Source: Sedimentisphaera cyanobacteriorum (GTDB lineage Bacteria > Planctomycetota > Phycisphaerae > Sedimentisphaerales > Sedimentisphaeraceae). Taken from it: a DNA stretch of 32,000 bases. The DNA lies in the NCBI RefSeq assembly GCF_001997385.1, contig NZ_CP019633.1, positions 420,001 through 452,000 on the forward strand, written 5' to 3'. Of the stretch, positions 5,969 through 25,132 are shown piece by piece. The position numbers were made by a program, and so were the translations under genes. A model generated the notes under the pieces. The model searched no databases, was not told the origin of the DNA, and worked only from the letters and a program-made list of their open reading frames with translations. Position 1 is the stretch's first letter, and every line of letters starts with the position of its first letter.

Positions 5969-5980
5969 TAGTGAAGCCTT

Positions 5981-6871
5981 TCAACGATTTTGTAATAAGT
6001 CGAATAGTATATTTGAAAGCTCAACATATTCAGAGGGATTGAGCATCTCGCCTCTAATCCCTGAATTAATGCCGGCTTGCTGGAATACGTTTTCCCAGTC
6101 TTTTATCTGCGATAGTCTCCCGTCCGCTAAACGGCAGCAGGCTCTAAGTGTTTTTCGTCTGTGCCCCATAAGCAGACTCACCGCTTCCTTCAATAGAGAT
6201 ATATCCTTAATGCGTGCGGTTTTTGACAATTTTTTTTCAAATTTCACCATTACCGATTCAACCTTAGGCGGAGGCCAGAAAACCTGAGGCGGAAGAGTTT
6301 TAAGAATTTCAGCTTCTCCAAGAGCCTGAATTATTATGCTCAAAGGCCCGTAGATTTTGCTTCCGCTTTGGGCTGTCATCCGCTGACCAACCTCTTTCTG
6401 TATCGTTACATACATCTGGTCTGCAAAAGGGCTGTCTGTAATAACGTTTATCATAACAGAAGAGGCTATGTTGTAGGGCAGGTTCGCTGCGAGAATCAGC
6501 CTGCCTCCAAGAGCCTCTCGCATTTTTTCCGCTTCAGAAATCAAATCCGGATTGAGCCGATTTTTCGTTTCAAGCGCATCGGCGCAGATTATCTTAACGT
6601 TTTGGAAGTCTTTGAATCGCCGGCTCACGCACTGCCCGAGCAGTTTGTCGTATTCCACTGCCACAACTCTGCCTGCCGCTTCGGCCAGAGCTTCGGTAAG
6701 GCTTCCTGTTCCGGCGCCGATTTCCATCACTGCATCAGTTTTTTTTATCTCGGCCTGAGAAATAAGAAAGTTAATCAGATTTGTATCGAAAAGAAAATTC
6801 TGACCGAGCTTTTTGTCCGGCTTCGCCCCGCACTGGGCAAGTATGCTTTGTATCTGCTGCTTACTCTGCAC
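5981..6871 (-). CDS. rsmA: 16S rRNA (adenine1518/1519-N6)-dimethyltransferase RsmA/KsgA
   Basis: The sequence shows LGQNFLFDTNLINFLI, the SAM motif VMEIGAGTGSLTEAL and NLPYNIAS. Confidence 0.92.
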   Translation of the reverse strand: MQSKQQIQSILAQCGAKPDKKLGQNFLFDTNLINFLISQAEIKKTDAVMEIGAGTGSLTEALAEAAGRVVAVEYDKLLGQCVSRRFKDFQNVKIICADALETKNRLNPDLISEAEKMREALGGRLILAANLPYNIASSVMINVITDSPFADQMYVTIQKEVGQRMTAQSGSKIYGPLSIIIQALGEAEILKTLPPQVFWPPPKVESVMVKFEKKLSKTARIKDISLLKEAVSLLMGHRRKTLRACCRLADGRLSQIKDWENVFQQAGINSGIRGEMLNPSEYVELSNILFDLLQNR

Positions 6872-6876
6872 GTGGA

Positions 6877-7890
6877 CTACTTTTTCGATTGGAATTTGTG
6901 TTTTCGGTCAACCATCATCGCAGCAACCCTGATAGCCATTTTCATACTCGCCTCATCAGCCTTGCCTTTTCCGGCAATATCGAATGCTGTTCCGTGAGCA
7001 GGCGAGGTTCTTATTATAGGAAGGCCAATTGTTACGTTTGTCGCATCGTTCATTGAAAGCGTTTTAACAGGTATCAGCCCCTGGTCGTGATACATTGCAA
7101 GGAATCCGTCATATTTCTCCCTGTTTTCCTTTGAGAAAAGCGTGTCTCCCGGGCTCGGCCCTTCAACATCTATCCCGTTTTCTCTGCTCGCTACCACTGC
7201 AGGCCTTATGATTCTGCTCTCTTCTTTGCCGAATCTTCCCCCTTCGCCTGCGTGCGGGTTGAGCCCGGCAACCGCAATCTTCGGCCGCTCAATTCCGAAA
7301 TATTTTTTCAGCGTCTGATTGAGCAGTTCGAGGGTATTTGTAATTTTCTTAATGCTGAGCCTGCCGGGAACCTCTGATAATGCGCAGTGGATTGTAGCAA
7401 GCGCAACTTTCAGCTCGCTCGATACAAACATCATTGCTGAATCTTTGCAGCCTGTTTTATGGGTTAAAAGTTCGGTATGCCCCGGCCATTTAGCCCCCGC
7501 CATTTTCCAGCTCTGCTTGTGTATAGGCGCAGTTACTAAAGCATCAAGCCTGCCTTCAAGAACATCAGAAACTGCATCACTGCAAAACAGAAGCGAGGCC
7601 CTTCCGGAATCTTCATTCGGCTCTCGCAAGCTTGTTCCTATCGATAAGCCGTAATCAAATACCGTAACCTGATTTTCTTCTTGGGGAAAACTTTTCGGCG
7701 AGCATACAGACCAGAATTTCTCTATTCCAAGCTCGCCGGCAGCCTTTGTTAGATACTTATCACTGCCGTAGATATAGAATCTCCCCTGAAGCCTTATCAC
7801 TGAGTCATAAAGCGCCTTCAATATTATCTCAGGGCCGATACCGTTTAAATCGCCCATTGTTACGGCTATTCTTTTATTGGAGAACAGCAT
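6877..7890 (-). CDS. pdxA: 4-hydroxythreonine-4-phosphate dehydrogenase PdxA
   Basis: The sequence shows IAVTMGDLNGIGPEI, GHTELL, GLNPHAGEGG, MYHDQGLIPVK and RTSPAHGTAFDIAGKGKAD. It sits 5 nt upstream of rsmA, matching the classical pdxA-ksgA synteny. Confidence 0.92.
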   Translation of the reverse strand: MLFSNKRIAVTMGDLNGIGPEIILKALYDSVIRLQGRFYIYGSDKYLTKAAGELGIEKFWSVCSPKSFPQEENQVTVFDYGLSIGTSLREPNEDSGRASLLFCSDAVSDVLEGRLDALVTAPIHKQSWKMAGAKWPGHTELLTHKTGCKDSAMMFVSSELKVALATIHCALSEVPGRLSIKKITNTLELLNQTLKKYFGIERPKIAVAGLNPHAGEGGRFGKEESRIIRPAVVASRENGIDVEGPSPGDTLFSKENREKYDGFLAMYHDQGLIPVKTLSMNDATNVTIGLPIIRTSPAHGTAFDIAGKGKADEASMKMAIRVAAMMVDRKHKFQSKK

Positions 7891-7965
7891 TTTATTTCCT
7901 GCATTAAACTAATGAAAATGTAAATTTTAAGCTTTAAACCTTACAGTTCAACTGATTTCCGTTTC

Positions 7966-9344: not shown

Positions 9345-10466
9345 ATGCTTGATTTAAAAAGTCTTTACGTGCACATACCTTTCTGCGATTACAAATGCGG
9401 CTGCTGCGGGTTTTATTCAATCCCGGAAACAGCAGAGAGCCTCCACCGAGACTACCTGAGCGCTTTGCAAAATGAGCTCAAAAGCTTTGATATTGATGAA
9501 GATTCGCTCGAGACAATCTACATCGGAGGCGGGAGCCCTTCAATTCTTTCCGAAGAGAACCTCGAGCATCTGCTGGGTATTTTTACTGAGAAATTCTCGC
9601 CCATTGAGTTTACAATTGAAATGAATCCCCGCCAGCTCACAAGAGACAAGCTTATTACAGCGGAGCTTTTCGGTGTGAACAGGCTTTCTATAGGCGTGCA
9701 GAGCTTTTCTGAGAAATCGCTTGAGGTTTTGGGCAGGAAAGGCTCACGCAGAGAGATTTTGAATGCCCTTGATGCAGCCTGCGATTCTCCAATAGAGAAT
9801 CTCAATATAGATTTGATTTTCGGCCTGCCTAACCAAACTCTCGAAGATCTCGAAAAAGATTTGGATATTGCCCTGAGTTTTGAGCCCGGCCATATTTCCG
9901 CATACAGCCTCGTCGTGGAGCAGAATACGCCCCTCGGCAAGTCTGTAGAAAGCGGGAGGCTAAAACTCCCAGGCCAGCAGCTCGATAGAAAAATGTATGA
10001 GCATTTGATTTGCCGGCTCGAAGAAGAGGGGCTTTATCAGTACGAGATCTCAAATTTTGCCCTGCCTGATTTTGAATGCCTGCACAACTGGAACTGCTGG
10101 CGTTCTGAGCAGTATATTGGGCTCGGGGCATCCGCAGGAAGCTTCTATAACGGCAGAAGATTTACCAATCCCGCTGATGTTAGAGGCTATATCGCTGCAG
10201 AGAGGAATCCAAAAAGAGAGTCTGCAGCTCTAACAGAAAAAGATTATGCATGGCAGACAGCGGTCTTGATGCTCAGAACAAACAGGGGGGTCTGCGCCGC
10301 TGAATTCAGCGATAAAACAGGCTTTGATTTCGAAGTGCTTTTCTCGGCTGAGATAGAAAAGAACATAAATGCAGGCTTGCTTGAAAAAACTGTTTCAGGC
10401 TGCCGGCTCACTCCGGAAGGTTTTTCTGTGGCCGATTCTGTCAGCAGAGAATTTGTTCTGGATTAG
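9345..10466 (+). CDS. hemW: HemW/HemN-like radical SAM protein (heme chaperone / oxygen-independent coproporphyrinogen oxidase-like)
   Basis: The sequence shows LYVHIPFCDYKCGCCGF (C-x3-C-x2-C), IYIGGGSPS, EMNP, NRLSIGVQSF, NIDLIFGLPNQT and HISAYSL. No SPASM-type extra Cys clusters are present. Confidence 0.85.
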   Translation: MLDLKSLYVHIPFCDYKCGCCGFYSIPETAESLHRDYLSALQNELKSFDIDEDSLETIYIGGGSPSILSEENLEHLLGIFTEKFSPIEFTIEMNPRQLTRDKLITAELFGVNRLSIGVQSFSEKSLEVLGRKGSRREILNALDAACDSPIENLNIDLIFGLPNQTLEDLEKDLDIALSFEPGHISAYSLVVEQNTPLGKSVESGRLKLPGQQLDRKMYEHLICRLEEEGLYQYEISNFALPDFECLHNWNCWRSEQYIGLGASAGSFYNGRRFTNPADVRGYIAAERNPKRESAALTEKDYAWQTAVLMLRTNRGVCAAEFSDKTGFDFEVLFSAEIEKNINAGLLEKTVSGCRLTPEGFSVADSVSREFVLD

Positions 10467-10508: not shown

Positions 10509-11921
10509 ATGAAGGGTTATTTTATGACAGAAAAAATTCAAAGACGAAGCTTCCTTAAGGCTTCAGGCGCACTGCTGGCGGGGAGTTTGTTTCCCGCTTA
10601 TTCTTCCGCGGGTGTTTCGAAGAAAATGAAAAAGCCAAACATTCTCTACATCCTTGTAGATGATATGGGCTGGTCGGATGTTGGTTATCACGACAGCCAG
10701 CTTCAGTCGCCGAATATCGACAGATTAGTCAAATCCGGCGCCGAGATGGACTGCTTCTACGTTCAGCCTCAATGCACGCCCACAAGAGTTGCCCTCATGA
10801 CAGGCAAGTACCCCTCTCGTTTCGGAAACCACTGCATCCAGGCATCCAACAAGCAGGCATACCCTAAAGGCACTCAAACGATGGCATCAATGCTCAAAAA
10901 GCAGGGCTATGATACTGCCGTAATGGGCAAGTGGCATATGGGCTCTAAGCCTGAATGGGGGCCGAATCACCACGGCTTCGATTACAGCTACGGCTCGCTC
11001 TCAGGCGCTATAGGTATGTACGACCACAGATACCGTCTTGATTCTGAATACGTTAAGACATGGCATCGAAACAGCGAGTTTGCTGAGGAAGAGGTCGGGC
11101 ATGTAACTGATCTGGTAACCCGGGAAGCTGTAAACTGGCTGAAGGAAGATAAACGAAAAGAAAACCCGTTCTTCCTGTATATGGCGTATCACAGCGTTCA
11201 TATTCCTCTGGTTGAGAATCACAGAACCGTGGCCAAATTTGATTATATAAAGGATCCCGACAGAAGGCTTATGGCGGCTGCTGTGTATCACCTCGACCAG
11301 TGTGTTGGAAGGCTATTAGATACCCTCGAAGAGCTTGGTATTCGCGAGAACACTCTAATTGTTTTCAGTTCCGACAACGGCGGCCTCAAAGACGGCAGCA
11401 GAAAGCCGCCCTTGGGAGAGCCCGAACATTATCCACAGCCAAACCCGCAGCTCGGTAAGGATTTCAGTATGAACGACCCACTGAGGGGAGGCAAATGCAC
11501 TGCCTTCGAGGGCGGTATAAGAGTGCCGGCATGCGTGAACTGGAAGGGCGTTATAAAGCCTCAAAAAATGACTCAGAGGATGCACATTGTTGATTGGATG
11601 CCAACAATCGCTCATCTAACGGGCTGCAGAACTGACCCAGAATGGGACGGTAAAGATATGTGGAAACATATCACCGGAAAGGCAGAGAAAAACGAGAGCA
11701 GAGATGTCTATATTGTATGGCATTCAGGCCGAACTTGGGAGGCTTTAATCTCAGGAGACTGGAAAATCGTTCGTAACGGCCAGAATTCAAAATGGCAGCT
11801 TTATGACCTTTCAAACGACCCGTATGAAACGGTAAACCTTGCCGATACGAATAAGAAAAAGTTTTCAGAACTCGTGCAGATTTATAAAAAAGAGCGAAGC
11901 AAAGACGCAAAAGGCGTATAG
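10509..11921 (+). CDS. S1-family sulfatase, exported, 470 aa
   Basis: It has an RR signal (IQRRSFLKASGALLAG), ILVDDMGWSD, the FGly motif CTPTRVALMTG, GKWHMG, SSDNGG and LYDLSNDPYE. An alternative ATG start lies at 10524. Confidence 0.9.
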   Translation: MKGYFMTEKIQRRSFLKASGALLAGSLFPAYSSAGVSKKMKKPNILYILVDDMGWSDVGYHDSQLQSPNIDRLVKSGAEMDCFYVQPQCTPTRVALMTGKYPSRFGNHCIQASNKQAYPKGTQTMASMLKKQGYDTAVMGKWHMGSKPEWGPNHHGFDYSYGSLSGAIGMYDHRYRLDSEYVKTWHRNSEFAEEEVGHVTDLVTREAVNWLKEDKRKENPFFLYMAYHSVHIPLVENHRTVAKFDYIKDPDRRLMAAAVYHLDQCVGRLLDTLEELGIRENTLIVFSSDNGGLKDGSRKPPLGEPEHYPQPNPQLGKDFSMNDPLRGGKCTAFEGGIRVPACVNWKGVIKPQKMTQRMHIVDWMPTIAHLTGCRTDPEWDGKDMWKHITGKAEKNESRDVYIVWHSGRTWEALISGDWKIVRNGQNSKWQLYDLSNDPYETVNLADTNKKKFSELVQIYKKERSKDAKGV

Positions 11922-11982: not shown

Positions 11983-12015
11983 AAAAAATATAAGCCAGAC
12001 CAAAAGGTCTGGCTT
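11983..12015 (-). terminator. Hairpin terminator oriented for minus-strand transcripts (symporter operon)
   Basis: A perfect 10-bp stem AAGCCAGACC/GGTCTGGCTT has an AAAA loop. The minus strand continues ATATTTTTT. It lies about 160 nt past the symporter stop, so the assignment is tentative. Confidence 0.45.
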
Positions 12016-12172
12016 AACGGTAAATATGGTTAGAATTAGAGGGGTTATGTTTTTAGTCTTTATATCCGGCAAAAGCCTGCCGGCGTTTTGCTTTCTTATG
12101 CTTTAATTTAACGTTTCTTGCCTTTAATGTCAAACCATACTTTTCAGGTTTTTGCGGAATTCAGTTTTTTTT

Positions 12173-13705
12173 TTACCTGAATATGACAATAAAAGCAATC
12201 ACAGCAGCTATTACAAGAATCCCGTAAATCTTAACATCTGGTTTGGTTTCAAGGTCTATATCTTCCCTCACAGGCAGCTTTCTCGGCGTTTCCAGAGGAC
12301 GCAGGAATGTCATAAGCCCCATAATGCATATAACAAGATTAAAGCTTATTGCCACATCCACCAAAAAGTGCTGAGTTTTCGCAAACATCTGGAATATTGC
12401 ATAGAATATCGGGCCTGATAACAGAGCCACAACGCCTGAAGCAGCCGGTGCCTGAGGTACGAGCATACCGAAAAGGAACGCTGCCACTACGCCGGGCCAG
12501 ATATACCCCTGAAACTGCTGTATATACTGGAAAACCCCGCCGAACTTTGGATTATCAAGCATCGGGGCAAGCAGACAGCCTACTATCACGAAAATCATCG
12601 TCATCGATCTGCCAAGAAGCAAAAGACCTTTCTGTCCGGCCTTACCGCCGAACATCCTTTTATAAACATCCATCGTGAAAATTGTTGAAGCGGAGTTCAG
12701 CATTGAACCCAGAGAGCTTATAACAGCTCCGGATATCGCTGCGAACATAAAACCTCTCAGCCCTGCTGGAACGAGATTGCGAATCAGTATCGGGAAGGCC
12801 TCGTCCGGAGTGCTCATCTGATCGCCGTAGAGCTGGTTAGACATTATCCCGGGAATCACAATCGCAAACGGAACAATCAGCCATAACGCACCCGCGAAGA
12901 TCACGCCGAGCTGCCCGTCCCTAAGGGTTTTTGCTGCAAGGTTTCTCTGCACTATAAACTGATTGAGGCCAGTATAGTAAATCAGAACAATCCACATACC
13001 GGAGGCAAGCCCTGTCCACGGGAGTTTCTCATGGTCTTCAGGGAGTATCATATGCAGCTTGTCTTCGTTTACTTCTGAAAACTGCTCCCAGCCTCCGCAG
13101 GCATGCAGACCGAGGAAGAAGATTACCAGTCCGCCTACAATCAGAGCACCTCCCTGAAAAAGGTCTGCCCAGGCAACCGCCTTCAGCCCGCCCCAGACAG
13201 TATAGCCTGCGGCGAGAAGGCCGATAAGCCATACGCCGTATTCGAGCTTGAGCCCGAAGATTGTACGCAGAGTAATACCGCCGGAATAAAGCACTGCCGT
13301 GAGAAGCACTGCCACATAAACTACCACAGTTAGAAGAGCCATTATCCCTCTTGCTGCGGAGTTGTAGCGGTATTCGAGGTATTCAGGCATTGTGTATATG
13401 CCTGCCTTGAGGAATCGAGGTATCAGTGTAAACGCTATCACTACAATACCTATACTGCCCAGAAGCTGCCAGTTTGAAACAGCCAGACCCACATCTCCGG
13501 CGCCCTGGCCTGCCATGCCTACAAACTGCTCTGTGGATATATTGGCTGCCACAATTGACACACCAATCAGCCACCATTTCAGTCCTCTGCCTGCGAGGAA
13601 ATAATCCTCACTGCTCGTTTCTTTACGGCTCTTGAATAGGCTTACGCCTATTACAACAGCAAAAAACGCTACGAATACGAATACGTCAAAAAAGCTTAGT
13701 TCCAT
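12173..13705 (-). CDS. Sodium:solute symporter, SGLT-like (SSS family), 510 aa
   Basis: It is polytopic. The stretch DYFLAGRGLKWWLIGVSIVAANISTEQFVGMAGQG...GIYTMPEYLEYRY closely follows the vSGLT/SGLT signature. Confidence 0.9.
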   Translation of the reverse strand: MELSFFDVFVFVAFFAVVIGVSLFKSRKETSSEDYFLAGRGLKWWLIGVSIVAANISTEQFVGMAGQGAGDVGLAVSNWQLLGSIGIVVIAFTLIPRFLKAGIYTMPEYLEYRYNSAARGIMALLTVVVYVAVLLTAVLYSGGITLRTIFGLKLEYGVWLIGLLAAGYTVWGGLKAVAWADLFQGGALIVGGLVIFFLGLHACGGWEQFSEVNEDKLHMILPEDHEKLPWTGLASGMWIVLIYYTGLNQFIVQRNLAAKTLRDGQLGVIFAGALWLIVPFAIVIPGIMSNQLYGDQMSTPDEAFPILIRNLVPAGLRGFMFAAISGAVISSLGSMLNSASTIFTMDVYKRMFGGKAGQKGLLLLGRSMTMIFVIVGCLLAPMLDNPKFGGVFQYIQQFQGYIWPGVVAAFLFGMLVPQAPAASGVVALLSGPIFYAIFQMFAKTQHFLVDVAISFNLVICIMGLMTFLRPLETPRKLPVREDIDLETKPDVKIYGILVIAAVIAFIVIFR

Positions 13706-13740
13706 TTCAACACCTTAAAAATGCTGTTATCAAATTTATT

Positions 13741-15015
13741 CTATATTGTTTTCACTCCGCGTGCATCGTCAACAGCATTTATCATTGATAGCAAATTCTC
13801 CAGAGGAACGTTGCTCTGAATATTGTGTATGCTGTTGAAAACGTATCCTCCGCCCTCGTTGAATATGTCAATTCTCTCGCGAACTTCTTTGTACACCTCT
13901 TCCGGCGTCCCGAAGGGAAGGGTTTTCTGCGTGTCAACGCCGCCGCCCCAGAATACAAGGTCATCGCCGAATTCATCTTTGAGCATCTGAGGGTCCATGT
14001 TCTCAGCAGAGCACTGAACCGGATTTAATACATCAAAGCCCGCATCTATCATATCCGGAATCAGCGGGGCGATAGAGCCGCAGCAATGCATAAATACCTT
14101 CCAGTTTGTGAGTTTGTGGATCTTATCGTTAATTGCCTTCTGGAACGGCTTATACATCTCTCTGTATGTTTCCGGAGAAATTAAAGGCCCGCGCTGAGCG
14201 CCGAAATCTGTTCCAGTTACAAAAACAACCTGAGGCATATCCCCGAGTGAATCAGCTAAAAGCTCGATATTCTCAAGAGCAACCTCGCACTGCTTCTCGA
14301 AAACCTTCATTATATAATCCTTCCGGATAGCAGTGGATATATACCACTCCTCAACGCCCCTGATTCCCTTGGGGTCCTTCAAAAACGGCCCGGGCACAAG
14401 AGCTATATCTCCGAAAGCCATTGCAGGCAGAGTAACGTAGATGCCGAATTCAGTGTTGTTGTAGTACCAGCTTACCTTTTCCTTGAAGTGGTTCAGCTCC
14501 TTTTCGCTGAGAACGCCGAATTCCTCGCAGTTGTCAAGATAATTGAGCTTATCTTCCTCAACAGGTTTCTGACGGTCTATCGAATCAAAGAAATAACTGG
14601 TAGAAGGCATTATCGCAGAAGGCTGCGCAGACTTGTCTCCCTGAGGGTAAACATAAACATCGCCGCTTTCGCTGACAGTATAGTTGAAATCTTCAGGCAC
14701 AAGGCACTCTGTTCCGTCAACCGGCATCTTGAATTTCTTGTACCTTCCCGTTTCCAAGCCAAACATATCATACAGCGGATAAATACCCGCAACGTCCAGC
14801 TGAAGCTTTCTCTTCAGCTCATCGTCAACCTCGCCGAGCATCTGGAATGTCTCGCAGATTTTGCAGGTGTAGTCTTTATCCCCTGTTACTGTTTTTCTCA
14901 GCTTGTCCAGAACGCATACACCTATACCGGTCTGCCCGCCTGCTCCGATATCAACGCACAGTCTGTCAGGCTGCTTGTGTTCTAAAACCGTTTGAAGTCT
15001 TTCTCTTGAATTCAT
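13741..15015 (-). CDS. Uroporphyrinogen-decarboxylase (URO-D/MtaA) superfamily protein of unknown function, 424 aa
   Basis: The N-terminus RERLQTVLEHKQPDRLCVD resembles the start of URO-D family proteins. The C-terminal half FMHCCGS...DAGFDVLNPVQ...LKDEFGDDLVFWGGGVD...GTPEEVYKEVRERI...GGGYVFNSIHNIQSNVPLENL parallels the HemE/MtaA TIM-barrel C-terminus. It lies 35 nt upstream of the symporter gene. Confidence 0.8.
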   Translation of the reverse strand: MNSRERLQTVLEHKQPDRLCVDIGAGGQTGIGVCVLDKLRKTVTGDKDYTCKICETFQMLGEVDDELKRKLQLDVAGIYPLYDMFGLETGRYKKFKMPVDGTECLVPEDFNYTVSESGDVYVYPQGDKSAQPSAIMPSTSYFFDSIDRQKPVEEDKLNYLDNCEEFGVLSEKELNHFKEKVSWYYNNTEFGIYVTLPAMAFGDIALVPGPFLKDPKGIRGVEEWYISTAIRKDYIMKVFEKQCEVALENIELLADSLGDMPQVVFVTGTDFGAQRGPLISPETYREMYKPFQKAINDKIHKLTNWKVFMHCCGSIAPLIPDMIDAGFDVLNPVQCSAENMDPQMLKDEFGDDLVFWGGGVDTQKTLPFGTPEEVYKEVRERIDIFNEGGGYVFNSIHNIQSNVPLENLLSMINAVDDARGVKTI

Positions 15016-15246
15016 TTTTTAATCCTGTCCTTAAGTTGAGCAATAATTTATTAATCACATAAACGTATATTAGAACAGAAATCAATAATTATTTAACTCA
15101 ATATTGTATAATAATACCGCAAATTTGGGCAAAAATTTAGATTGATGCAGTTAATTTCATCAGTATTTTAAATTTTGTGGTAAATTTTCACTGTTTGAAT
15201 ACATTATTAAATAGAAAAGGTCTTATTGTTTAACTGGGAGATAAAA

Positions 15247-16782
15247 ATGAAATATTCAAGAAGAAATTTTCTCAAAGCTGCTGGAGTTATGTCTGCAGGG
15301 CTTGCATTTGGAGAGAATGTTCTCGCTGATGAAAAAAAGAAGCCTAATGTTGTAATTATATACACAGACGACCTCGGCTACGGCGATGTAAGCTGCTACG
15401 GCGCAACAGAAATCGAAACACCTAATATCGACAGATTGGCCAAGGAAGGCCTGCGCTTTACAAACACGCACACCGCCTCTGCCACCTGCACCCCTTCAAG
15501 ATATGCCCTGCTGACAGGTGAGTATCCTTGGAGAAGGGAAGATACCGGTATTGCAGCAGGCGATGCGAATATGATTATAGAAGCCGGCAGACACACTTGG
15601 CCGGAATCAATGCGCAGAGCCGGCTACAAAACAGCTGTTGTAGGCAAATGGCACTTGGGGCTGGGCGATTCAAAGATAGACTGGAACAAAAAGATAGCAC
15701 CAGGGCCGCTTGAAATAGGCTTTGATTACAGCTTTATAATCCCCGCAACTGGTGACAGAGTTCCCTGCGTTTATGTGGAAAATCACGAAGTTGCAAACCT
15801 TGATGAAGACGACCCACTCTATGTGAGCTTCAAAAAGCCGTTCAAAGGCCTGCCTACGGGCAAAAAGAACCCCGAGCTTCTCAATATGAAGCACTCCCAC
15901 GGCCACAACAACGCAATTATAAACGGCGTAGGCAGGATTGGCTATATGAAGGGCGGGGCAAGCGCTGTATGGAACGACAGGACAATGGCCGCAAAGCTGG
16001 TTGACAAGGCCTGCGATTTTATGTACGAAAATAAAAACAATCCTTTCTTCCTCTATTTCTGCACCCATGATGTGCATGTTCCGCGCCTTCCAAACGAGGA
16101 GTTCCGAGGCAAGAGCGGGATGGGGCCGCGAGGCGATGCTATCCTCCAGCTCGACTGGACAGTAGGAATGCTTCTCGAGGAGCTTGAAGAGATGGGGCTC
16201 AAGGACGATACTGTCGTTATGTTCTCCAGCGATAACGGGCCTGTGCTCGATGACGGCTATCAGGATAAGGCAGTGGAAAAGCTCGGAGACCACGAACCTT
16301 GGGGGCCTTACCGCGGCGCAAAATACAGCAGATATCAGGCAGGGACGCTCGTTCCGTTTATACTGAGATGGCCGGGTGAGGTGCCTGCGGGCAAAACCTC
16401 TGATGCCCTCATATCCCAGACAGACCTTTTCGCTTCATTTGCAGCGATGAATAATCAGAAAATGCCGAAGACCGCTCCGGACAGCAAGAATGTTCTGCCT
16501 GCTCTTCTCGGCAAGACTGAAAATGCAAGGAAATATCTTGCAATTGATGCTATCGGAGGGCTGGCTGTCGTTGGCGGAAGATGGAAGTTTATGCCGGCAA
16601 ATGATGAGCCCAAAACCGCTTGGCAGACAGGCATAGATACCGGCGCAAGAAGAAAGCCCCAGCTCTATGATTTGAAAAACGATATGGCAGAGAAAAACAA
16701 CCTTGCTGATAAGATGCCCGGCGTGGTTGAAGACCTTTCTCAAAAGCTTGAAGAGATATTAAACGGCGCCGCTCCTGAATAG
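15247..16782 (+). CDS. S1-family sulfatase, exported, 511 aa
   Basis: The start is moved to the ATG at 15247 (GGGAG SD 6 nt upstream); the ORF track uses the TTG at 15226. It has an RR signal (YSRRNFLKAAGVMSAG), IYTDDLGYGDVSCYG, the FGly motif CTPSRYALLTG, GKWHLG, SSDNGP and LYDLKNDMAE. Confidence 0.9.
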   Translation: MKYSRRNFLKAAGVMSAGLAFGENVLADEKKKPNVVIIYTDDLGYGDVSCYGATEIETPNIDRLAKEGLRFTNTHTASATCTPSRYALLTGEYPWRREDTGIAAGDANMIIEAGRHTWPESMRRAGYKTAVVGKWHLGLGDSKIDWNKKIAPGPLEIGFDYSFIIPATGDRVPCVYVENHEVANLDEDDPLYVSFKKPFKGLPTGKKNPELLNMKHSHGHNNAIINGVGRIGYMKGGASAVWNDRTMAAKLVDKACDFMYENKNNPFFLYFCTHDVHVPRLPNEEFRGKSGMGPRGDAILQLDWTVGMLLEELEEMGLKDDTVVMFSSDNGPVLDDGYQDKAVEKLGDHEPWGPYRGAKYSRYQAGTLVPFILRWPGEVPAGKTSDALISQTDLFASFAAMNNQKMPKTAPDSKNVLPALLGKTENARKYLAIDAIGGLAVVGGRWKFMPANDEPKTAWQTGIDTGARRKPQLYDLKNDMAEKNNLADKMPGVVEDLSQKLEEILNGAAPE

Positions 16783-17033: not shown

Positions 17034-18611
17034 ATGAATCTATCGAGGCGTAATTTTCTTAAAAGAGCTTCAATCTTAGGTGCAGGTGCGTTTGCAGGTG
17101 CCTCTTTTGCGGGTTCTTCGAGCAGCCGGCCGAATATTATTTGGCTTATCTGCGAAGATATGTCTCCGGATTTGGCCTGTTACGGAAATTCGGTTGTAAA
17201 AACGCCAAATATAGACGCTCTCGCCCAGCAGGGCAGGCGATACGACAGGGTTTACTGCACAGCACCTGTCTGCTCGGCAAACCGCAGCGCTCTGTTCACC
17301 AGTATGTATCAGACCACGCTCGACGCCCAAGACCACCGCAGCCACCGAGATGACGGGTATATTTTGCCCTCTCCCGCCCGGGTAATTACGAATTATTTCA
17401 GAGATGAAGGATACTATACAAGCTGCGGGCGCTGGGACAATACCTCCAGCTGGGGCAAGGGCGACTGGAACTGGCAGAGCCCGACCCATCGCGACAGCTT
17501 CGACGGAACCGACTTTTCCGGCAGGGCTCAGGGGCAGCCGTTCTTTGCTCAAATAAGCTTTTCCCTTACCCACCGTTCAGCAGATTCCGTTCAGAACCCG
17601 CAGAATCCAATCTCTGGTTCTCAAATTGAGCTCCCTCCAACTAATCCTGAACATCCTCTTACGAGAAAGGACTGGTCGAATTATCTCGAGAAGGTGCAAA
17701 AGCTGGATTCTCAGGTTGGTTCGGTGCTTTCCCGCATTGAATCTGAGGGTCTTGCGGAAAACACGATAATTTTCTTCTTCTCAGACCACGGCCGTCCTCA
17801 GATCTGGGATAAGCAGTGGCTGTATGAAGGCGGGCTAAGAATTCCGCTGATTATTCGCTGGCCCGGAGAGATCCCCGAAGGCAGTGTTAGCGATGAGCTT
17901 ATCAGCACTATTGATTTAGCTCCAACTGCGATGAAATGGGCGGGGATTGATGTGCCCGGCCATTTCCACGGCATGCCATTTTCAAGAGAAGGCAGAAGAC
18001 TCGTTTATGACAGCGCCAGCTTTTCCCTCGGGCTCGCTTCCCAAACCGCCGGCAGAAACTATGCCTTCGCAGCGAGGGATAAATGCGGCGCAAGCTTCGA
18101 CCGCATAAGGGCGGTTATCACGAAACGATACAAATATATTCGCAATTTCTATCCCGAAAGGCCGTACACGAACAATCCGGGACAGACTATGTTCAACAGA
18201 TACATTGCAAATGAGTATCCCGTTAATGCGGTTCAGTTTGCAAAGTATTATCAAGGCTCGCTTGAGCCTGCCCAGCTCAAGTTTATGGAAACAGCAGGCG
18301 GGGCGAACCGCCCGGCAGAAGAACTCTACGACCTGCAAAACGACCCATGGGAGCTGAATAATTTAGCGGCTAACCCGCAGCATCAGCGAATAAGAGATCA
18401 CCTTTCCCGCAGACTGGACCGCTGGATTGTAGAAACTGGCGATATGGGCGAATACCCGCCGGACGATTTGAATGTCGGGTTAAACTGGGGAACAAACAAT
18501 TTCTACAGCACCCTTGAAGCAAGAGGTGTTGATACAGAACCATTCAAACAGGGCAGATATCAGCAGGGCTGGGAAAATTATCTTGCGTACTGGGAAAATG
18601 TTTTGCTCTAA
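17034..18611 (+). CDS. S1-family sulfatase, C-x-A-x-R variant, exported, 525 aa
   Basis: It has an RR signal (LSRRNFLKRASILGAGAFAG). The metal site reads WLICEDMSPDLACYG (E-D instead of D-D). The FGly motif is CSANRSALFT (Cys80, codon at 17271-17273). Later motifs are FSDHGRP and LYDLQNDPWE. Confidence 0.88.
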   Translation: MNLSRRNFLKRASILGAGAFAGASFAGSSSSRPNIIWLICEDMSPDLACYGNSVVKTPNIDALAQQGRRYDRVYCTAPVCSANRSALFTSMYQTTLDAQDHRSHRDDGYILPSPARVITNYFRDEGYYTSCGRWDNTSSWGKGDWNWQSPTHRDSFDGTDFSGRAQGQPFFAQISFSLTHRSADSVQNPQNPISGSQIELPPTNPEHPLTRKDWSNYLEKVQKLDSQVGSVLSRIESEGLAENTIIFFFSDHGRPQIWDKQWLYEGGLRIPLIIRWPGEIPEGSVSDELISTIDLAPTAMKWAGIDVPGHFHGMPFSREGRRLVYDSASFSLGLASQTAGRNYAFAARDKCGASFDRIRAVITKRYKYIRNFYPERPYTNNPGQTMFNRYIANEYPVNAVQFAKYYQGSLEPAQLKFMETAGGANRPAEELYDLQNDPWELNNLAANPQHQRIRDHLSRRLDRWIVETGDMGEYPPDDLNVGLNWGTNNFYSTLEARGVDTEPFKQGRYQQGWENYLAYWENVLL

Positions 18612-18618
18612 GGAGGTT

Positions 18619-20508
18619 ATGGTGAAATTATTTACACTTTCAGTTTTGCTTCTTGCCTCTTCTGTTTTAGGTGCACAGATCCCGCAAGGCCTCTCAGGGG
18701 CATGGAGATTTGAGGAGGCAGGTTCTGGCATAATAAAAGATTTTTCCGGAAATAATTCTGACGGTATCCTGCTGGGATCGCCCTCAGCCTGCGATGGGTA
18801 TATTTCAGCCGGCCTTGAGCTCGACGGCTTCGATGATTATATCAATGCTCCCTCGTTTACTATGAACACGCAGAACGCTGCATTTAGTGCGTGGATTAAC
18901 ACTCAATCAATCCCGAATTGGTGGGTTTCAGTTATCAACACTCACAAGGCCTCGGGCAAGTGCGGCCTTGCATTCTACAAAAACCAGAATCAGCTTGCAT
19001 ATTACTGGAACGACAGCAAATACAGCTTCGACAGCGGCCTTGAAATCCCGCTCAATCAGTGGGTTTTTATCGCTGTTGTAATTGAGCCTGAAAGGGCGGT
19101 GCTCTATGTGAAACCCTATGGCGGGCAGCTTGAGAAGAGCGTAAATTTCGACAATCATTCCTTCTGCAGTTTGAAAGGGGTAATGATAGGCAGGGATTCT
19201 GCACCGGGCTGGGGAGACGGCGAAAGGCGCTTCCAAGGGCGCATAGATGAGGTTAGGATCTATTCGAGGAGCCTCTCTGAGAGCGAGGTTATCCGGCTTT
19301 CTGATATGGAAAGATGCTGGAATTATCCGCCTCGAATATCTGTAAGCGATGCCCAGATTGCCTATGCCGGCAAGCCGCGAAGCTTCAGCTGTTCTTTTCA
19401 GGATGACGGCAGGCCTTTTATCGAAGGCTGCGATAATCTGATGCAGGGCACTTCTTTCCAGAAGACTTTCTATTGGAGTAAAGTTTCCGGTACGGGCAGT
19501 GTCAGTTTTACAGCCCCCTATAAACAGACATCTCAGGCAGTTTTCTCCGAGCCGGGGAATTATCAGATTAAGATAGATGTTTCAGACGGGCCTTCCGGAA
19601 TCCCTGAACAGATCCACGGGAAAACAGGTTCTGTTTTTATAGACGTGGAAGTGCTTAGCGAAGAAGATAAACAGCTCTTAGCGGATTACAGATTCCAGCA
19701 GCAGCCTGATGAAGATGCCCCGGATTCAGCAGGCGAAAATGATTTGGCTCAGAGGATGGTTTTCGGTCTGCCCGGTCAGAACTGGTGCGAAGGCCCAGAA
19801 AACAGCAAAGCAGCGGGTTTTATGCCCGGGGAAAATACTTTTTATGAAATCCAGCCCTCCGGCAACAGTCAGTCAGAGCTTGCAGATATCAAAGAGGCAG
19901 CTGTTTCTGCTTGGATTATGCCGCTTGCAGGCTCGCCGGAAGGGGGGAGAGTTTGTTTTTCCGCAAAAAACTCTTCAGGAAAGGTCTTCACCATTGAAGG
20001 TACAAGCACATTGAGCAATTCAAAGTGGCATCATATAGCTGCTGTGTACGATGCGGTTCAAGGGCAGATGCTCGTTTATGTTAACGGAGTTTTAGACGCA
20101 GCCAAAGATATTCCCCCTTCAGCCCTCAGCAGTGATTGGTATGAGCCTTTGATTGCCTCAGGGTACTCCGAGCAGAGAGAAAATTTTGCAGGATGTATTG
20201 ATAAGCTCCAGATTTTCAACTATGCCCTCTCAAGAAACGAGGTCGTTTCACTGATGGAGTGCAGTGAGCTTGTTTTTGCCGGCCTCAGCGCCGAGGCAGA
20301 CATCTCGGGCAGGTTAAATTCTCCCGACTGCCGGGTAGATCTGTTCGATTATGCATTGCTCGCAGACAGCTGGCTCAGCTTTTCTCCAGTTAATGCAGAC
20401 ATAACTGGGGATTCGGCTGTAAATATTTCCGATTTGGCGCTGCTGGCTGAGAGCTGGCTCTCCTGTAAAGACCCGCAAGACCCGAGATGCCTTCAATATT
20501 ACGAATAA
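18619..20508 (+). CDS. Secreted LamG / Ig(PKD)-like / LamG / dockerin-like multidomain protein, 629 aa
   Basis: The start is moved to the ATG at 18619, where an AAGGAGG SD at 18610-18616 overlaps the upstream stop codon. The signal peptide is MVKLFTLSVLLLASSVLGA. Two LamG-type modules end in FQGRIDEVRIYSRSLSESEV and FAGCIDKLQIFNYALSRNEV. The central module YWSKVSGTGSVSF...FSEPGNYQIKIDVSDG is PKD/Ig-like. The C-terminus has two dockerin-like repeats, including DITGDSAVNISDLALLAESWL. Confidence 0.8.
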   Translation: MVKLFTLSVLLLASSVLGAQIPQGLSGAWRFEEAGSGIIKDFSGNNSDGILLGSPSACDGYISAGLELDGFDDYINAPSFTMNTQNAAFSAWINTQSIPNWWVSVINTHKASGKCGLAFYKNQNQLAYYWNDSKYSFDSGLEIPLNQWVFIAVVIEPERAVLYVKPYGGQLEKSVNFDNHSFCSLKGVMIGRDSAPGWGDGERRFQGRIDEVRIYSRSLSESEVIRLSDMERCWNYPPRISVSDAQIAYAGKPRSFSCSFQDDGRPFIEGCDNLMQGTSFQKTFYWSKVSGTGSVSFTAPYKQTSQAVFSEPGNYQIKIDVSDGPSGIPEQIHGKTGSVFIDVEVLSEEDKQLLADYRFQQQPDEDAPDSAGENDLAQRMVFGLPGQNWCEGPENSKAAGFMPGENTFYEIQPSGNSQSELADIKEAAVSAWIMPLAGSPEGGRVCFSAKNSSGKVFTIEGTSTLSNSKWHHIAAVYDAVQGQMLVYVNGVLDAAKDIPPSALSSDWYEPLIASGYSEQRENFAGCIDKLQIFNYALSRNEVVSLMECSELVFAGLSAEADISGRLNSPDCRVDLFDYALLADSWLSFSPVNADITGDSAVNISDLALLAESWLSCKDPQDPRCLQYYE

Positions 20509-20685: not shown

Positions 20686-22683
20686 TCATTTATCAAAAAA
20701 CACCGGCACTGCCCACTTGCCGAATTCCAGCTTTTCACCATCTTTACAATTCTTTTGATAGAGCGTGCAATGATTGGAATCTCTTTCCGTAAAGAATTTG
20801 AATTCCGGGATATCCACCTTTTCAAAGCCTTGCATCTCAAGCCTGCGGGATTGGCTGTCTTTATTTCTATGCGGCCGTGGGGTTAAGAAATGCACCATTC
20901 CGCCTTTCTTGCAGACAATAGTTTTTGTGCCGTCCATATCAGTCCGAACGAAATTTGCCCTTTTCAAAACATAGGGTAAATTGCGAACTTTGTAATCACG
21001 ATCGGCAAATAAAACCGCTCCAATTTCAAGGCTGAGTTGCGGGGTTTGTTTAATTTGGGCGGCAGGTTTTCTCATCAGCGGTTCGCCTTCTTTATTGTCT
21101 GAGCCGGCGCTGCCGAATTTCTCTTCTATCAACTTGTTTCGTTCCTGCTTTTCTTGCAAAATTTCGGAGAGCGTTTTGCGTTTGCCTTCAGCACCCTTTC
21201 GAGAGCTGCCGGAGGTGAAATGGGTTTCAAGCAGAGCTCTCATTCGCCACAATATCTCGGGAAATTTGGCGGCAAGATTGTTCTTTTCTTGGGGGTCGTC
21301 TTCGAGGTTGTATAATTCCATCTTATCCTTGTCCGGGTAGTAAACAAGCTTCCATTTACCTTCACGCAAACCTAAGGAGTTAAGCGCTCTGTCGCCCCCT
21401 ATTATATATGGCCTGATTTCGTTTTTGCTGCTTTTAGCAGTTAAAGCCGGCAAAATATTGAAGCTGTCAAGGGCCTGGTCGGGTTTCAGTGTATATCCTG
21501 TTAAAGCTGCAAAAGTTGCTGCCATATCCGAAAGCATTATCGGCTCGCTGCTTACCTCTGCTCTCGGTATTGCCCCGGGCATTCGAGCGATAAAAGGAAC
21601 GCGCAAACCGCCTTCATAAGCGGTGGCTTTATGGCCGCGCCATGGTGCAGCAGGACGATAATCTTCTTTGCAGCTGCTGTGAGCATTAGAATTCCGATAT
21701 CCCCCGTTGTCGCTGGTAACAATCAGCAGTGTGTTTTCCGCCAATCCAAGCCTGTCCAGAGTTTGCATTATTCTGCCTATTGTCCAGTCGAACTGCATAA
21801 CGAAATCTCCGTGTTTTCCGATCCCGCTTTTGCCTTCAAAACGCTTGTCAGGGGCTATAGGGAAATGTATTGAGCAGGTTGGAAAATAAAGAAAGAAAGG
21901 ATTCTCAGAATTTTGTTCTATAAATTCTTCAGCTTTCTGAACGAGCCTCGCTCCTATTTCATCATCTTTCCTGCGATTTTCCCACTTGCCCTTGGGAATA
22001 TGCCTTACAAGCTTATAGCCGTATCTGTCGAGAATTTTTATTTTGCTTTCAAACGGAGGCTTTGTCCCGCCTTGAATCTCACCGTCTTCTATATAATACT
22101 TTGGCTTCATATTGTGTCCATCGGGAACAATATAAGATTTATCGAACCCTATATCGTTAGGCCCAAAACCGGGATTATTTATATCTCTGGGCAGCTGTTT
22201 TCCTAAGCCTAAATGCCATTTGCCTACAACGCCTGTTTTGTATCCCTGCTGTTTAAACATTTTGGCAATGTTATACTCGTCTTTCCCGATAATCATCGGC
22301 TCGCCGTTAAACATTACATGGCTTGTATGATACTTTCTGAACGGACAGGTGCCGGTCAACACGGAATATCTGGTGGGAGTGCAAACAGCAGCGTTGCTGT
22401 AGGCATCTGTCAGTTGTATTCCCTGCTTTGCAAGCTTGGTTGTATTAGGTGTGGGGAAATACTCCTGCCCGTAGGCAGCTAAGTCTGAATAGCCTATATC
22501 ATCAGCCATAATGAATATAACATTAGGTTTTGATTTTGTTTTTTCCTGTCCCGCAAAAACTCTGCTTTGCATAAAGTTTGCCGCAAGCGAGGAACCGGCT
22601 GCGAAAGAAGCAGCAGTTCTCAAAAAATTTCTGCGAGAAACATTCTGATATTTGCTGTTTTTATAAAGCTTATTTTCATTCAT
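20686..22683 (-). CDS. S1-family sulfatase with about 175-aa C-terminal extension, exported, 665 aa
   Basis: It has an RR signal (VSRRNFLRTAASFAAG), IMADDIGYSD, the FGly motif CTPTRYSVLTG, GKWHLG, TSDNGG and LYNLEDDPQE (around aa 458-465). A K/E-rich linker and an uncharacterised domain of about 120 aa follow. Confidence 0.9.
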   Translation of the reverse strand: MNENKLYKNSKYQNVSRRNFLRTAASFAAGSSLAANFMQSRVFAGQEKTKSKPNVIFIMADDIGYSDLAAYGQEYFPTPNTTKLAKQGIQLTDAYSNAAVCTPTRYSVLTGTCPFRKYHTSHVMFNGEPMIIGKDEYNIAKMFKQQGYKTGVVGKWHLGLGKQLPRDINNPGFGPNDIGFDKSYIVPDGHNMKPKYYIEDGEIQGGTKPPFESKIKILDRYGYKLVRHIPKGKWENRRKDDEIGARLVQKAEEFIEQNSENPFFLYFPTCSIHFPIAPDKRFEGKSGIGKHGDFVMQFDWTIGRIMQTLDRLGLAENTLLIVTSDNGGYRNSNAHSSCKEDYRPAAPWRGHKATAYEGGLRVPFIARMPGAIPRAEVSSEPIMLSDMAATFAALTGYTLKPDQALDSFNILPALTAKSSKNEIRPYIIGGDRALNSLGLREGKWKLVYYPDKDKMELYNLEDDPQEKNNLAAKFPEILWRMRALLETHFTSGSSRKGAEGKRKTLSEILQEKQERNKLIEEKFGSAGSDNKEGEPLMRKPAAQIKQTPQLSLEIGAVLFADRDYKVRNLPYVLKRANFVRTDMDGTKTIVCKKGGMVHFLTPRPHRNKDSQSRRLEMQGFEKVDIPEFKFFTERDSNHCTLYQKNCKDGEKLEFGKWAVPVFFDK

Positions 22684-22738
22684 GGCTTTTTCCTTTAATA
22701 AATCTCTACGAAATAATTGGCTGCTGCTGTTTTTTGAG

Positions 22739-24019: not shown

Positions 24020-24043
24020 AATTAAAATTCCTTTTGTGTTGTT

Positions 24044-25132
24044 TTATCTTACTACCCTGCCCGAGGCGCTTCCGCCGGCAAGAGCCTCTACTTCGTTCCT
24101 GCTGCTGAAGTTGAAATCGCCTTTGATTGAATGGGCAAGGCAGGATGTAGCTGCTGCAAATGAAACTGCCTTTTGGCATTCTGCTAATTCAGAGGTGTTT
24201 AAGGCAAAGATCAAACCTGCGGCGAATGCGTCTCCGCCGCCTACCCTGTCAACGATATCCGTTATCTTATACGGCTGATATTCGCCGCCGTCTGTCGGGG
24301 CGTAATAGGCTTTGGCCTGCTCGCAGTCGTAAAGCATTGCCCCCCAGTTGTTGTGCGAAGCGGATACGCTCTGCCGAAATGTGGTGGCTATCTTATCAAC
24401 GTTTGGAAACGCCTTGTGTATTTTAATTGCGACGTCTTTGTAGGCATTTACATCGAGCCTGCCCGCCTGAACGTCAGTGTTTTCAGCCTCTATGCCCAGC
24501 ACACAGGCGGCGTCTTCCTCGTTGGCGATTAAGACATCAACGTAGGGGACAATCTCGCTCATTACCTCTCGGGCAAGGCTCTTCGGCTCTTTCCCCGGCT
24601 CCCATTTCCAAAGCTTCCCCCTGAAGTTCAAATCGCAGGATATTGTTACTGATGCCTGTTTTGCATTTTTAACAGCGGCAAGCGTGCTCTGGGCTGCCTC
24701 TTTTGAAAGCGCCGGCGTTATTCCGGATATGTGCAGCCAGCCGGCATCGGCGAAGATACCGTTCCAATCGTAAGCATCGGGCTTTGCTTTGCTTATTGCT
24801 GAATGAGAGCGGTCGTATATTATGCGGCTCGGACGCTGATTGGCTCCGGTTTCGGTAAAATACAGCCCTAACCTGCCGTCGTTATGTATTATATGCGATG
24901 TGCCTACACCTAAAGACCTCAGCTCGGCGATACAGGCGGCGGCTATGTCGTTTTTCGGCAATGCTGTAACAAAAGCCGCCTTTCCCCCAAGCTGGGATAT
25001 TGATACTGCAACATTCGCTTCCGCGCCGGCAAAAAGCATATTTACCTTACCCGGCAGACACTGACGAAACCTCATAAAGCCTTCCGGCATAATCCTTGCC
25101 ATAATTTCGCCAAAAGTTATCACCTTTTTCAT
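24044..25132 (-). CDS. kdgK: 2-dehydro-3-deoxygluconokinase (PfkB family)
   Basis: MKKVITFGEIMARIMPEGFMRFRQ...FAGAEANVAVSISQLG is the long-form KdgK N-terminus. The C-terminal anion hole reads VDRVGGGDAFAAGLIF. It is adjacent to eda. Confidence 0.85.
   Translation of the reverse strand: MKKVITFGEIMARIMPEGFMRFRQCLPGKVNMLFAGAEANVAVSISQLGGKAAFVTALPKNDIAAACIAELRSLGVGTSHIIHNDGRLGLYFTETGANQRPSRIIYDRSHSAISKAKPDAYDWNGIFADAGWLHISGITPALSKEAAQSTLAAVKNAKQASVTISCDLNFRGKLWKWEPGKEPKSLAREVMSEIVPYVDVLIANEEDAACVLGIEAENTDVQAGRLDVNAYKDVAIKIHKAFPNVDKIATTFRQSVSASHNNWGAMLYDCEQAKAYYAPTDGGEYQPYKITDIVDRVGGGDAFAAGLIFALNTSELAECQKAVSFAAATSCLAHSIKGDFNFSSRNEVEALAGGSASGRVVR

Follow-up and report, generated by a model that had tools for sequence, protein, structure and literature searches.

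Within a 32,000-nucleotide stretch of the Sedimentisphaera cyanobacteriorum genome (contig NZ_CP019633.1, positions 420,001 to 452,000; hereafter the window), two adjacent genes encode a 424-residue protein of the uroporphyrinogen decarboxylase (URO-D) superfamily and an SGLT-type Na+/sugar symporter. S. cyanobacteriorum is an anaerobic saccharolytic planctomycete of the class Phycisphaerae, and the best explanation for this gene pair is that it forms a small catabolic module for an O-methylated monosaccharide. We propose, at what we judge to be about an even chance of being right, that the URO-D-like enzyme is the substrate-specific methyltransferase I (MT I) of a corrinoid-dependent O-demethylase and that its substrate is an imported O-methyl monosaccharide. 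A broader proposal, which we rate slightly below even, is that the enzyme represents a widespread O2-independent route for the O-methyl sugars of algal, cyanobacterial and plant glycans. In this route, a URO-D-type methyltransferase would pass the methyl group to a cobalamin protein and from there to homocysteine or other thiols (yielding methionine, possibly methanethiol) or to folate; bacteria using it would be found in the Planctomycetota, Verrucomicrobiota, Bacteroidota and Acidobacteriota as well as in further phyla.

The two open reading frames (ORFs) are arranged as the first-pass annotation had described them, with the enzyme gene upstream of the symporter gene and 35 nt between the two (Table 1). 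An AAGGTG ribosome-binding site lies 7 nt ahead of the symporter ATG within this spacer, no terminator-like hairpin interrupts the spacer on the minus strand, and a hairpin beyond the symporter gene probably marks the end of a two-gene operon; this arrangement fits co-transcription of the pair. No signal peptide was found on the enzyme, indicating a cytoplasmic protein, while the neighbouring sulfatases, and the glycosidases that neighbour its relatives, do carry signal peptides. A promoter scan of the divergent intergenic region ahead of the enzyme gene gave two weak sigma-70-like hits, both on the minus strand, which is no more than chance would produce. Rfam and tRNA scans of the window found nothing, and thus no cobalamin riboswitch there. 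A 165-residue antisense ORF overlaps the enzyme gene, and similar antisense ORFs cluster in 69 of 85 related loci; the likeliest reading is that it mirrors the strongly conserved sense frame and is no gene.

An AlphaFold (AF2) model of the enzyme was of good quality (predicted local distance difference test score 86.6, predicted template-modelling score 0.88) and matched the URO-D-superfamily barrel across its full length in Foldseek, confirming over the entire protein the fold that had been assigned at first pass. The best match in the Protein Data Bank (PDB) was the Methanosarcina zinc methyltransferase MtaA (4ay7; E 5.5e-12, template-modelling scores 0.55/0.67), followed by HemE structures (E ~1e-9) and then by MetE. 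Sequence models reached less far. The Pfam URO-D match was limited to residues 274-416 (69 bits), TIGR01463, which covers the MtaA/CmuA methyltransferases, scored 58.6 bits against a cut-off of 235.4, and NF040654 scored 43.3 bits against 400. The hemE model TIGR01464 gave 16.2 bits (E 0.004; cut-off 302.95), over the C-terminal third only. In a sequence search of the PDB, a profile (A1) gave a weaker result than the single sequence. The enzyme is also about 80 residues longer than HemE, as had been noted, and its N-terminal half is family specific, carrying a D-x-G-A-G-G-Q-T-G motif. Together, the profile and structure searches place the protein in the URO-D/MtaA superfamily as neither HemE nor a canonical MtaA. 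Membership of the canonical MtaA group or of the "Mlp" group was rejected, given the scores below cut-off, an identity to MtaA far under the 25% limit that defines Mlp, and the different gene contexts.

The enzyme belongs to a very large, tightly conserved clade that is unnamed and uncharacterised. It matched more than 8000 clusters at 90% identity, the best 120 of which are all at least 62% identical to it and about 420 residues long; at the 50% clustering level, 850 representatives fell below 1e-30 and 4444 below 1e-10. In pattern scans, a relative was encoded in at least 569 of the 600 genome matches and at least 575 of the 600 metagenome matches listed. The family spans at least eight phyla (Planctomycetota, Verrucomicrobiota, Lentisphaerota, Bacteroidota, Acidobacteriota, Armatimonadota, Chloroflexota and Hydrogenedentota, plus others), and the sources of several members appear to be anoxic.

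We counted residue conservation in 166 family members at 49-93% identity. Seventy-seven positions are at least 97% conserved, many of them polar or aromatic (D, E, Q, N, R, W, Y), and His310, Cys312 and His397 are present in all 166 members. The FMHCCGS string on which the first-pass annotation had based an "H-C-C triad" is indeed present, but the triad is not a feature of the family: Cys311 is a cysteine in only 13 of the 166 members and a serine in 131, and we replace the triad with the invariant pattern H-x-C...H. Pairwise alignment places His310, Cys312 and His397 on His246, Cys248 and Cys325 of 4ay7 (H-x-C...C), which we take to be the MtaA zinc ligands His240, Cys242 and Cys319, a six-residue offset in the PDB chain being a fitting explanation for the numbering. 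The three invariant residues would then be putative metal ligands, with Zn2+ the probable metal. The enzyme's N-terminus, DRLCVDIGAGGQTG, lacks the Arg-rich (RQAGR-like) substrate-binding motif of HemE. Among UroD-superfamily methyltransferases, those acting on sulfur use a His-Cys-Cys site, while in those acting on oxygen one or both cysteines are replaced (PMC10418091). By this rule, the third ligand being histidine puts the His-Cys-His pattern on the O-demethylase side.

We sampled the family gene and its surroundings in 87 genome loci and 80 metagenome loci, calling neighbours by all-ORF clustering plus tblastn; many of the contigs were too short for neighbours to be judged. By tblastn, 41 of the 87 genome loci and 25 of the 80 metagenome loci (66/167) have an SGLT-type SSS transporter or a sugar-porter MFS transporter as the immediate neighbour on the same strand; counting the whole of the fetched flank, the numbers rise to 50 and 35, respectively. 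The partner MFS protein is closest to XylE (E 1.8e-91). An Rbs/Mgl-type ATP-binding cassette (ABC) system lies near the family gene in three loci (L065-L067), and CUT1-type permeases do so in another (L078). The presence of three or four unrelated classes of monosaccharide importer at the equivalent position is a strong argument that the enzyme acts on a monosaccharide taken up from outside. AraC and XylR-type regulators also recur near the gene, as do secreted glycosidases. The commonest of these, in about 18 of the 87 loci, is a glycoside hydrolase of family GH2, about 1060 residues long with a CBM32-like domain, which belongs to subfamily GH2_20 (best PDB match 8u01, E 1.3e-188); GH35, GH28, GH59, GH120 and GH20 enzymes are found as well. 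A B12-binding radical S-adenosylmethionine (SAM) protein of about 505 residues is encoded near the family gene in three loci (L016, 3168..4682 on the plus strand; L022; L086).

The symporter in the window is a Na+/sugar-type transporter, as had been predicted: it scores 218 bits in PF00474 (cut-off 22.8) and 301 in TIGR00813 (cut-off 184), placing it in the SSS family, and its closest PDB structure is vSGLT, matched over the full length (E 8.9e-95). Its score against the YidK-type equivalog NF007790 (394.1) is just under the cut-off of 401. The protein keeps the vSGLT Na+/sugar core residues N64, E68, Q69, Y263 and Q428 (vSGLT numbering). At the positions that presumably contact galactose, their roles being those assigned in the vSGLT literature, it carries E88Q, S91G, N260L, W264T and K294W. 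A less polar pattern at E88, N260 and K294 (Q, L/I and W) is common to 14 of the 22 SSS proteins in family loci. Less polar ligand positions would suit a sugar with a capped hydroxyl, which we offer as a lead only.

The link to corrinoid chemistry comes from near-orthologues. Corrinoid-system genes, namely a corrinoid protein, a RACo activase, or MtaA-like or homocysteine methyltransferases, stand beside the family gene in 10 of 166 independently sampled loci, and the enzymes encoded there are 50-61% identical to that of S. cyanobacteriorum. In locus L021 (Verrucomicrobiia; enzyme 61% identical), a 212-residue corrinoid protein with B12-binding and B12-binding_2 domains and a DxHxxG motif ends 18 nt ahead of the family gene, while the opposite strand carries RACo, DUF1638 and a homocysteine S-methyltransferase-like gene. 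Two further loci, L089 (Verrucomicrobiia; enzyme 61% identical) and L090, which we reached by starting from the corrinoid protein, hold a fuller form of this cluster: they encode a corrinoid protein, an MtaA-like URO-D protein of 337 residues (H-x-C...C) and then a 422-residue family member, with RACo, DUF1638, S-methyl_trans and a further URO-D gene on the opposite strand. On a Bacteroidota chromosome (L064), a tight operon runs from the family gene through a corrinoid protein, a URO-D gene, a MetH-activation-like domain, a second URO-D gene and S-methyl_trans to a Sugar_tr MFS transporter, so that corrinoid machinery and a sugar importer share a single predicted transcription unit. In other loci, RACo and a corrinoid protein lie near the family gene (L084 and L171), the family gene is accompanied by a corrinoid protein and ABC permeases (L078), a corrinoid protein lies 2.8 kb upstream (L065 and L146), S-methyl_trans lies 15 nt downstream (L101), or an MtaA-like gene lies 88 nt downstream (L107 and L108).

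The corrinoid-linked enzymes do not form a separate branch but are interleaved by sequence identity with the transporter-linked ones: the L021 enzyme is 82% identical to that of L027, which is MFS-linked, and 81% identical to that of L033, which is MFS- and GH2-linked, while the L064 enzyme is 73% identical to that of L080, which has a distantly related SSS-type gene upstream. O-demethylation, one of two reactions that the first-pass annotation had put forward, gains comparative support from the operons of near-orthologues; the other, decarboxylation of a sugar acid, found none in the gene contexts. Two other features of these loci may be recorded here. A DUF1638 protein with no NCBIfam match is encoded between RACo and the homocysteine methyltransferase-like gene (L089, 14516..15268, minus strand; L021, 12809..13573, minus strand) and may be an accessory, as yet uncharacterised, to methyltransferase systems of the corrinoid type. 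In L064, a glycyl-radical enzyme (pyruvate formate-lyase-like, 787 residues) and its activase (4750..7911, plus strand) lie directly upstream of the family operon on the same strand and may hint at what becomes of the sugar after demethylation, such as entry into a deoxyhexose or propanediol route.

Several observations weigh against assigning the enzyme to a corrinoid-dependent sugar demethylase. No corrinoid protein, activase or second methyltransferase was found in the window, no corrinoid protein or RACo in any locus whose enzyme is at least 62% identical to that of S. cyanobacteriorum, and neither in the 32 genome loci named as Planctomycetota; linkage is seen in only 6% of loci. A search with a five-sequence corrinoid-protein profile was uninformative for Sedimentisphaera, its best 120 matches all being Verrucomicrobia-like, and a sink for the methyl group was not identified in S. 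cyanobacteriorum. The aliphatic methyl ether of a sugar is chemically harder to cleave than an aryl methyl ether, and the only corrinoid precedent that we know of is the methanol enzyme MtaB, whose fold is different. The enzyme is only remotely similar to characterised methyltransferases, its identity to 4ay7 being 14%. We found no characterised precedent for a His-Cys-His site in the URO-D superfamily, and histidine is not among the cysteine replacements listed in PMC10418091.

An alternative that we consider unlikely but serious is that the enzyme converts the imported monosaccharide by itself and without any corrinoid, either cofactor-free or with a metal, as a sugar-acid decarboxylase of HemE-like chemistry, an isomerase or epimerase, or a hydrolytic de-etherase built on the URO-D barrel, the corrinoid-linked relatives being a functional offshoot. 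Such an enzyme would fit the 94% of loci that have no corrinoid-system gene nearby, including all those at 62% identity or above, and a two-gene unit that looks self-sufficient. It would also fit the position of His397 within an FN(S/L)xH(N/G)I motif that is present in HemE too, and HemE structures that match it almost as closely as MtaA does. An offshoot is, however, hard to reconcile with corrinoid-linked and transporter-linked members that are 73-83% identical and interleaved, or with the L064 operon, which holds both a corrinoid protein and a sugar transporter. The invariant H-x-C moreover corresponds to metal ligands that are present in the methyltransferase branch and absent from HemE, and neither the 16-bit hemE score nor the N-terminal region, with no HemE-type Arg-rich motif, brings the enzyme closer to HemE.

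Less probable again, in our view, is a corrinoid methyltransferase that acts on something other than a methylated sugar. Candidate substrates would be an aromatic aglycone or glycoside bearing a methoxyl group, a methylated polyol or osmolyte, or a methyl-thio compound; alternatively, the enzyme would work in the MtaA direction, from corrinoid methyl to an acceptor. The hypersaline mat from which S. cyanobacteriorum came is rich in methylated osmolytes, and the verrucomicrobial clusters L021 and L089 contain neither a sugar transporter nor a glycosidase. Aryl methyl ethers, thiols or halides are the substrates of those URO-D-type demethylases that have been characterised (PMC10418091). Against this stand the partner transporters, all of monosaccharide types (vSGLT-like, XylE-like and Rbs-like ABC), and neighbours that include secreted glycosidases and AraC/XylR sugar regulators. 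His-Cys-His also departs from the His-Cys-Cys of the thiol methyltransferases, and the unloading role in those corrinoid clusters is already fitted by the MtaA-like paralogue with its H-x-C...C site. That the enzyme is the organism's HemE, acting in tetrapyrrole biosynthesis, is wildly improbable: the Pfam URO-D match and a HemN-like radical SAM gene 1.7 kb away would favour it, but the 16.2-bit TIGR01464 score refutes it for practical purposes, bearing out the first-pass view, and the added length, an N-terminal half peculiar to the family, an invariant H-x-C motif that HemE does not have, the sugar transporter as conserved partner and the placement of the HemN-like gene in a housekeeping block on the other strand all argue the same way.

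Under the corrinoid-dependent O-demethylase that we favour, exported enzymes would free the sugar outside the cell, these being sulfatases in S. cyanobacteriorum and GH2_20 or GH35 beta-galactosidases, GH28 enzymes and others in relatives. The SGLT-type symporter would then bring the sugar in together with Na+. In the cytoplasm, His310, Cys312 and His397 would bind a metal, probably Zn2+, that polarises the ether oxygen, and the methyl group would pass to the Co(I) of a separate corrinoid protein, leaving the unmethylated sugar to enter ordinary sugar catabolism. A second methyltransferase, either MtaA-like or homocysteine S-methyltransferase-like, would unload the methyl-Co(III) protein, and a RACo-type activase would repair oxidised cofactor. 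In S. cyanobacteriorum, the corrinoid protein, the second methyltransferase and the activase would be encoded outside the locus. From the comparisons above we infer metal binding, the direction of methyl transfer, the sugar-ether substrate and the presence of these partners in the S. cyanobacteriorum genome. As for the sugar itself, methyl-galactose or a methyl-deoxyhexose is our guess: the frequent beta-galactosidases suggest methyl-galactose, while neighbours suited to pectin and rhamnogalacturonan II (RG-II), together with the L064 glycyl-radical enzyme, make methyl-fucose, methyl-xylose or methyl-rhamnose possible.

The surroundings of the pair proved less stable than the pair itself. The enzyme gene is divergent from a sulfatase gene and sulfatases occur on both sides, as had been observed. 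The pairing with a transporter does recur across many phyla, but the sulfatases do not recur with it. In a relative with a 78% identical enzyme, at the equivalent chromosomal site (with HemN-like, xseA, pdxA and rsmA flanks), the order is URO-D, SSS and a GH2 beta-galactosidase. The congener S. salicampi (L087) keeps both divergent sulfatases and lacks the convergent one between the HemN-like gene and the symporter, and a sulfatase lies within 8 kb of the family gene in only about 10 of 85 loci. These three observations rule out the sulfatase cluster as part of the functional unit.

Table 1. Features of the window, with coordinates, strand and remarks
Feature	Coordinates	Strand	Remarks
URO-D-superfamily protein gene	13741..15015	minus	424 aa; 100% identical to AQQ08536.1/WP_077538923.1
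SGLT-type Na+/sugar symporter gene (SSS family)	12173..13705	minus	510 aa; identical to AQQ08535.1/WP_077538921.1
Intergenic spacer, 35 nt	13706..13740	minus	AAGGTG ribosome-binding site; no terminator-like hairpin on minus strand
Terminator-like hairpin	11991..12016	minus	11-bp stem plus T run; ~157 nt past symporter stop; probable operon end
AT-rich divergent intergenic region	15016..15225		Presumed promoter region, between URO-D-like gene and divergent sulfatase gene
Antisense ORF	14488..14985	plus	165 aa; most likely not a gene
TAT-exported sulfatase, divergent neighbour	15226..16782	plus	Genus-specific context only; not in conserved module
TAT-exported sulfatase, convergent with symporter	10509..11921	plus	Missing at equivalent S. 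salicampi position; context only
Sulfatase	17034..18611	plus	TAT signal; followed by secreted LamG-domain protein; kept in S. salicampi, not outside genus; context only
Secreted LamG-domain protein, two Laminin_G_3 domains	18514..20508	plus	Listed ORF overlaps sulfatase 3' end by ~100 nt
HemN-like radical SAM protein (Radical_SAM + HemN_C)	9345..10466	plus	373 aa; after xseA
Block without counterpart in S. salicampi	20686..27261		Sulfatase, Nramp-like transporter, PfkB kinase, KDPG aldolase, XylR/AraC regulator
Apparent sugar-acid operon	22739..25811	minus	KDPG/KHG aldolase, PfkB-family kinase (KDG-kinase-like), Nramp-family transporter
XylR-type regulator	26122..27261	plus	Peripla_BP_3 + AraC HTH; divergent from sugar-acid operon
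ORF at window edge	30407..31102	plus	231 aa; no Pfam match; adjacent to transposase gene
DDE transposase gene	31148..31906	minus	Window edge

For two of the ORFs, the true start probably lies within the listed frame: in the divergent, twin-arginine translocation (TAT)-exported sulfatase at the Met ahead of RRNFLK, and in the LamG-domain protein at the Met ahead of the signal peptide MVKLFTLSVLLL. The HemN-like gene sits in a housekeeping block (xseA, pdxA, rsmA) that is kept in relatives, on the strand opposite the enzyme gene. Its product is of a size that suggests the HemW type over a true coproporphyrinogen oxidase, and the gene should not be read as a heme-pathway context for the URO-D-like gene.

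Further downstream, S. salicampi lacks the block of genes that ends with the XylR-type regulator, and its LamG gene directly abuts a gene for an H+-pyrophosphatase. Within the genus, sulfatase and sugar-acid genes come and go around a core that stays stable. The block includes an apparent operon for a 2-keto-3-deoxy-6-phosphogluconate (KDPG)/4-hydroxy-2-oxoglutarate (KHG) aldolase, a kinase resembling 2-keto-3-deoxygluconate (KDG) kinase and an Nramp-family transporter, with the regulator (a Peripla_BP_3 domain and an AraC helix-turn-helix, HTH) divergent beside it; it is unusual for a sugar-acid operon to include an Nramp-type protein. The window edge is occupied by a DDE transposase gene with an ORF next to it, at the place where S. 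salicampi has a GH99/GH71-like gene after the H+-pyrophosphatase.

Methyl ethers on sugars block ordinary catabolism, and such sugars are found in many glycans: 6-O-methyl-galactose in porphyran, 2-O-methyl-fucose and 2-O-methyl-xylose in pectin RG-II, 4-O-methyl-glucuronate in xylan, and methyl-rhamnose in cyanobacterial sheaths. How methyl sugars are handled in anaerobic sediments, mats, peat, guts and digesters has no explanation in the literature that we searched. That full-text literature, which covers few subscription journals so that prior work is possible, contained no link of URO-D-family or corrinoid proteins to methylated sugars, and the only sugar demethylases in it were the O2-dependent P450s of marine aerobes (PMC6292453, PMC10033563). 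If our proposal is correct, the family would extend the corrinoid O-demethylase system to a new clade of MT I proteins, to substrates of a new class and to new hosts. It would do under anaerobic conditions what the P450 sugar demethylases do with O2, and the methyl ether of a carbohydrate would here be cleaved by a corrinoid enzyme for the first time. The family would also give a function to thousands of genes labelled "uroporphyrinogen decarboxylase family protein" or "methylcobalamin:CoM methyltransferase", tie polysaccharide degradation to vitamin B12 supply, reveal a new source of methyl groups for methionine, methanethiol/dimethyl sulfide or one-carbon metabolism in anoxic habitats, and offer a biocatalyst for mild carbohydrate demethylation. 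With cultured Sedimentisphaera strains and a two-gene module in hand, the question is directly testable.

Among known systems, the methylcobamide:coenzyme M methyltransferases MtaA and MtbA are the closest in structure. They share the TIM-barrel fold with the enzyme, 4ay7 being its best structural match; His310 and Cys312 align with their first two zinc ligands; and genes for MtaC/MtbC-type corrinoid proteins and for RACo/RamA-type activases lie next to those of the enzyme's near-orthologues. The enzyme differs from them in being only 14% identical and below all NCBIfam cut-offs, in having histidine rather than cysteine as third ligand, and in its roughly 80 extra residues and N-terminal half with the D-x-G-A-G-G-Q-T-G motif. 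Its proposed direction of transfer, from substrate to corrinoid (as in MT I) rather than from corrinoid to thiol, is also different, and its partner is a sugar transporter rather than methanogenesis genes.

In proposed function, the nearest systems are the MT I components of anaerobic O-demethylases (MtvB of Moorella and the MT I proteins of Acetobacterium and Desulfitobacterium), which we take to belong to the URO-D superfamily. Known MT I enzymes demethylate aryl methyl ethers such as vanillate, veratrol and guaiacol. Set beside the enzyme by description, they share the proposed four-component logic of MT I, corrinoid protein, methyltransferase II and activase, and a cysteine is replaced in the putative zinc site of the enzyme, as reported for O-methyltransferases (PMC10418091). 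The enzyme's predicted substrate, by contrast, is an aliphatic methyl ether on a sugar that a sugar transporter brings in. The enzyme occurs in saccharolytic fermenters rather than acetogens, and its partner genes are usually unlinked.

The task that we propose, removal of a methyl ether so that a sugar from algal or plant glycans becomes usable, is the one carried out in marine aerobes by P450 monooxygenases, which demethylate 6-O-methyl-D-galactose by O2-dependent hydroxylation with release of formaldehyde (PMC6292453, PMC10033563). Those proteins are unrelated to the enzyme, whose proposed chemistry is an O2-independent methyl transfer to cobalamin. HemE has the same fold (Foldseek E ~1e-9) and a C-terminal FNxxHxI-like motif, but differs from the enzyme in model score (16 against a cut-off of 303), in its tetrapyrrole context, in having no H-x-C motif and in being shorter. 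Finally, the symporter resembles the Vibrio Na+/galactose symporter vSGLT (3dh4, 2xq2) over its full length and in its core residues, and departs from it at the galactose-ligand positions in a way that suggests a less polar sugar.

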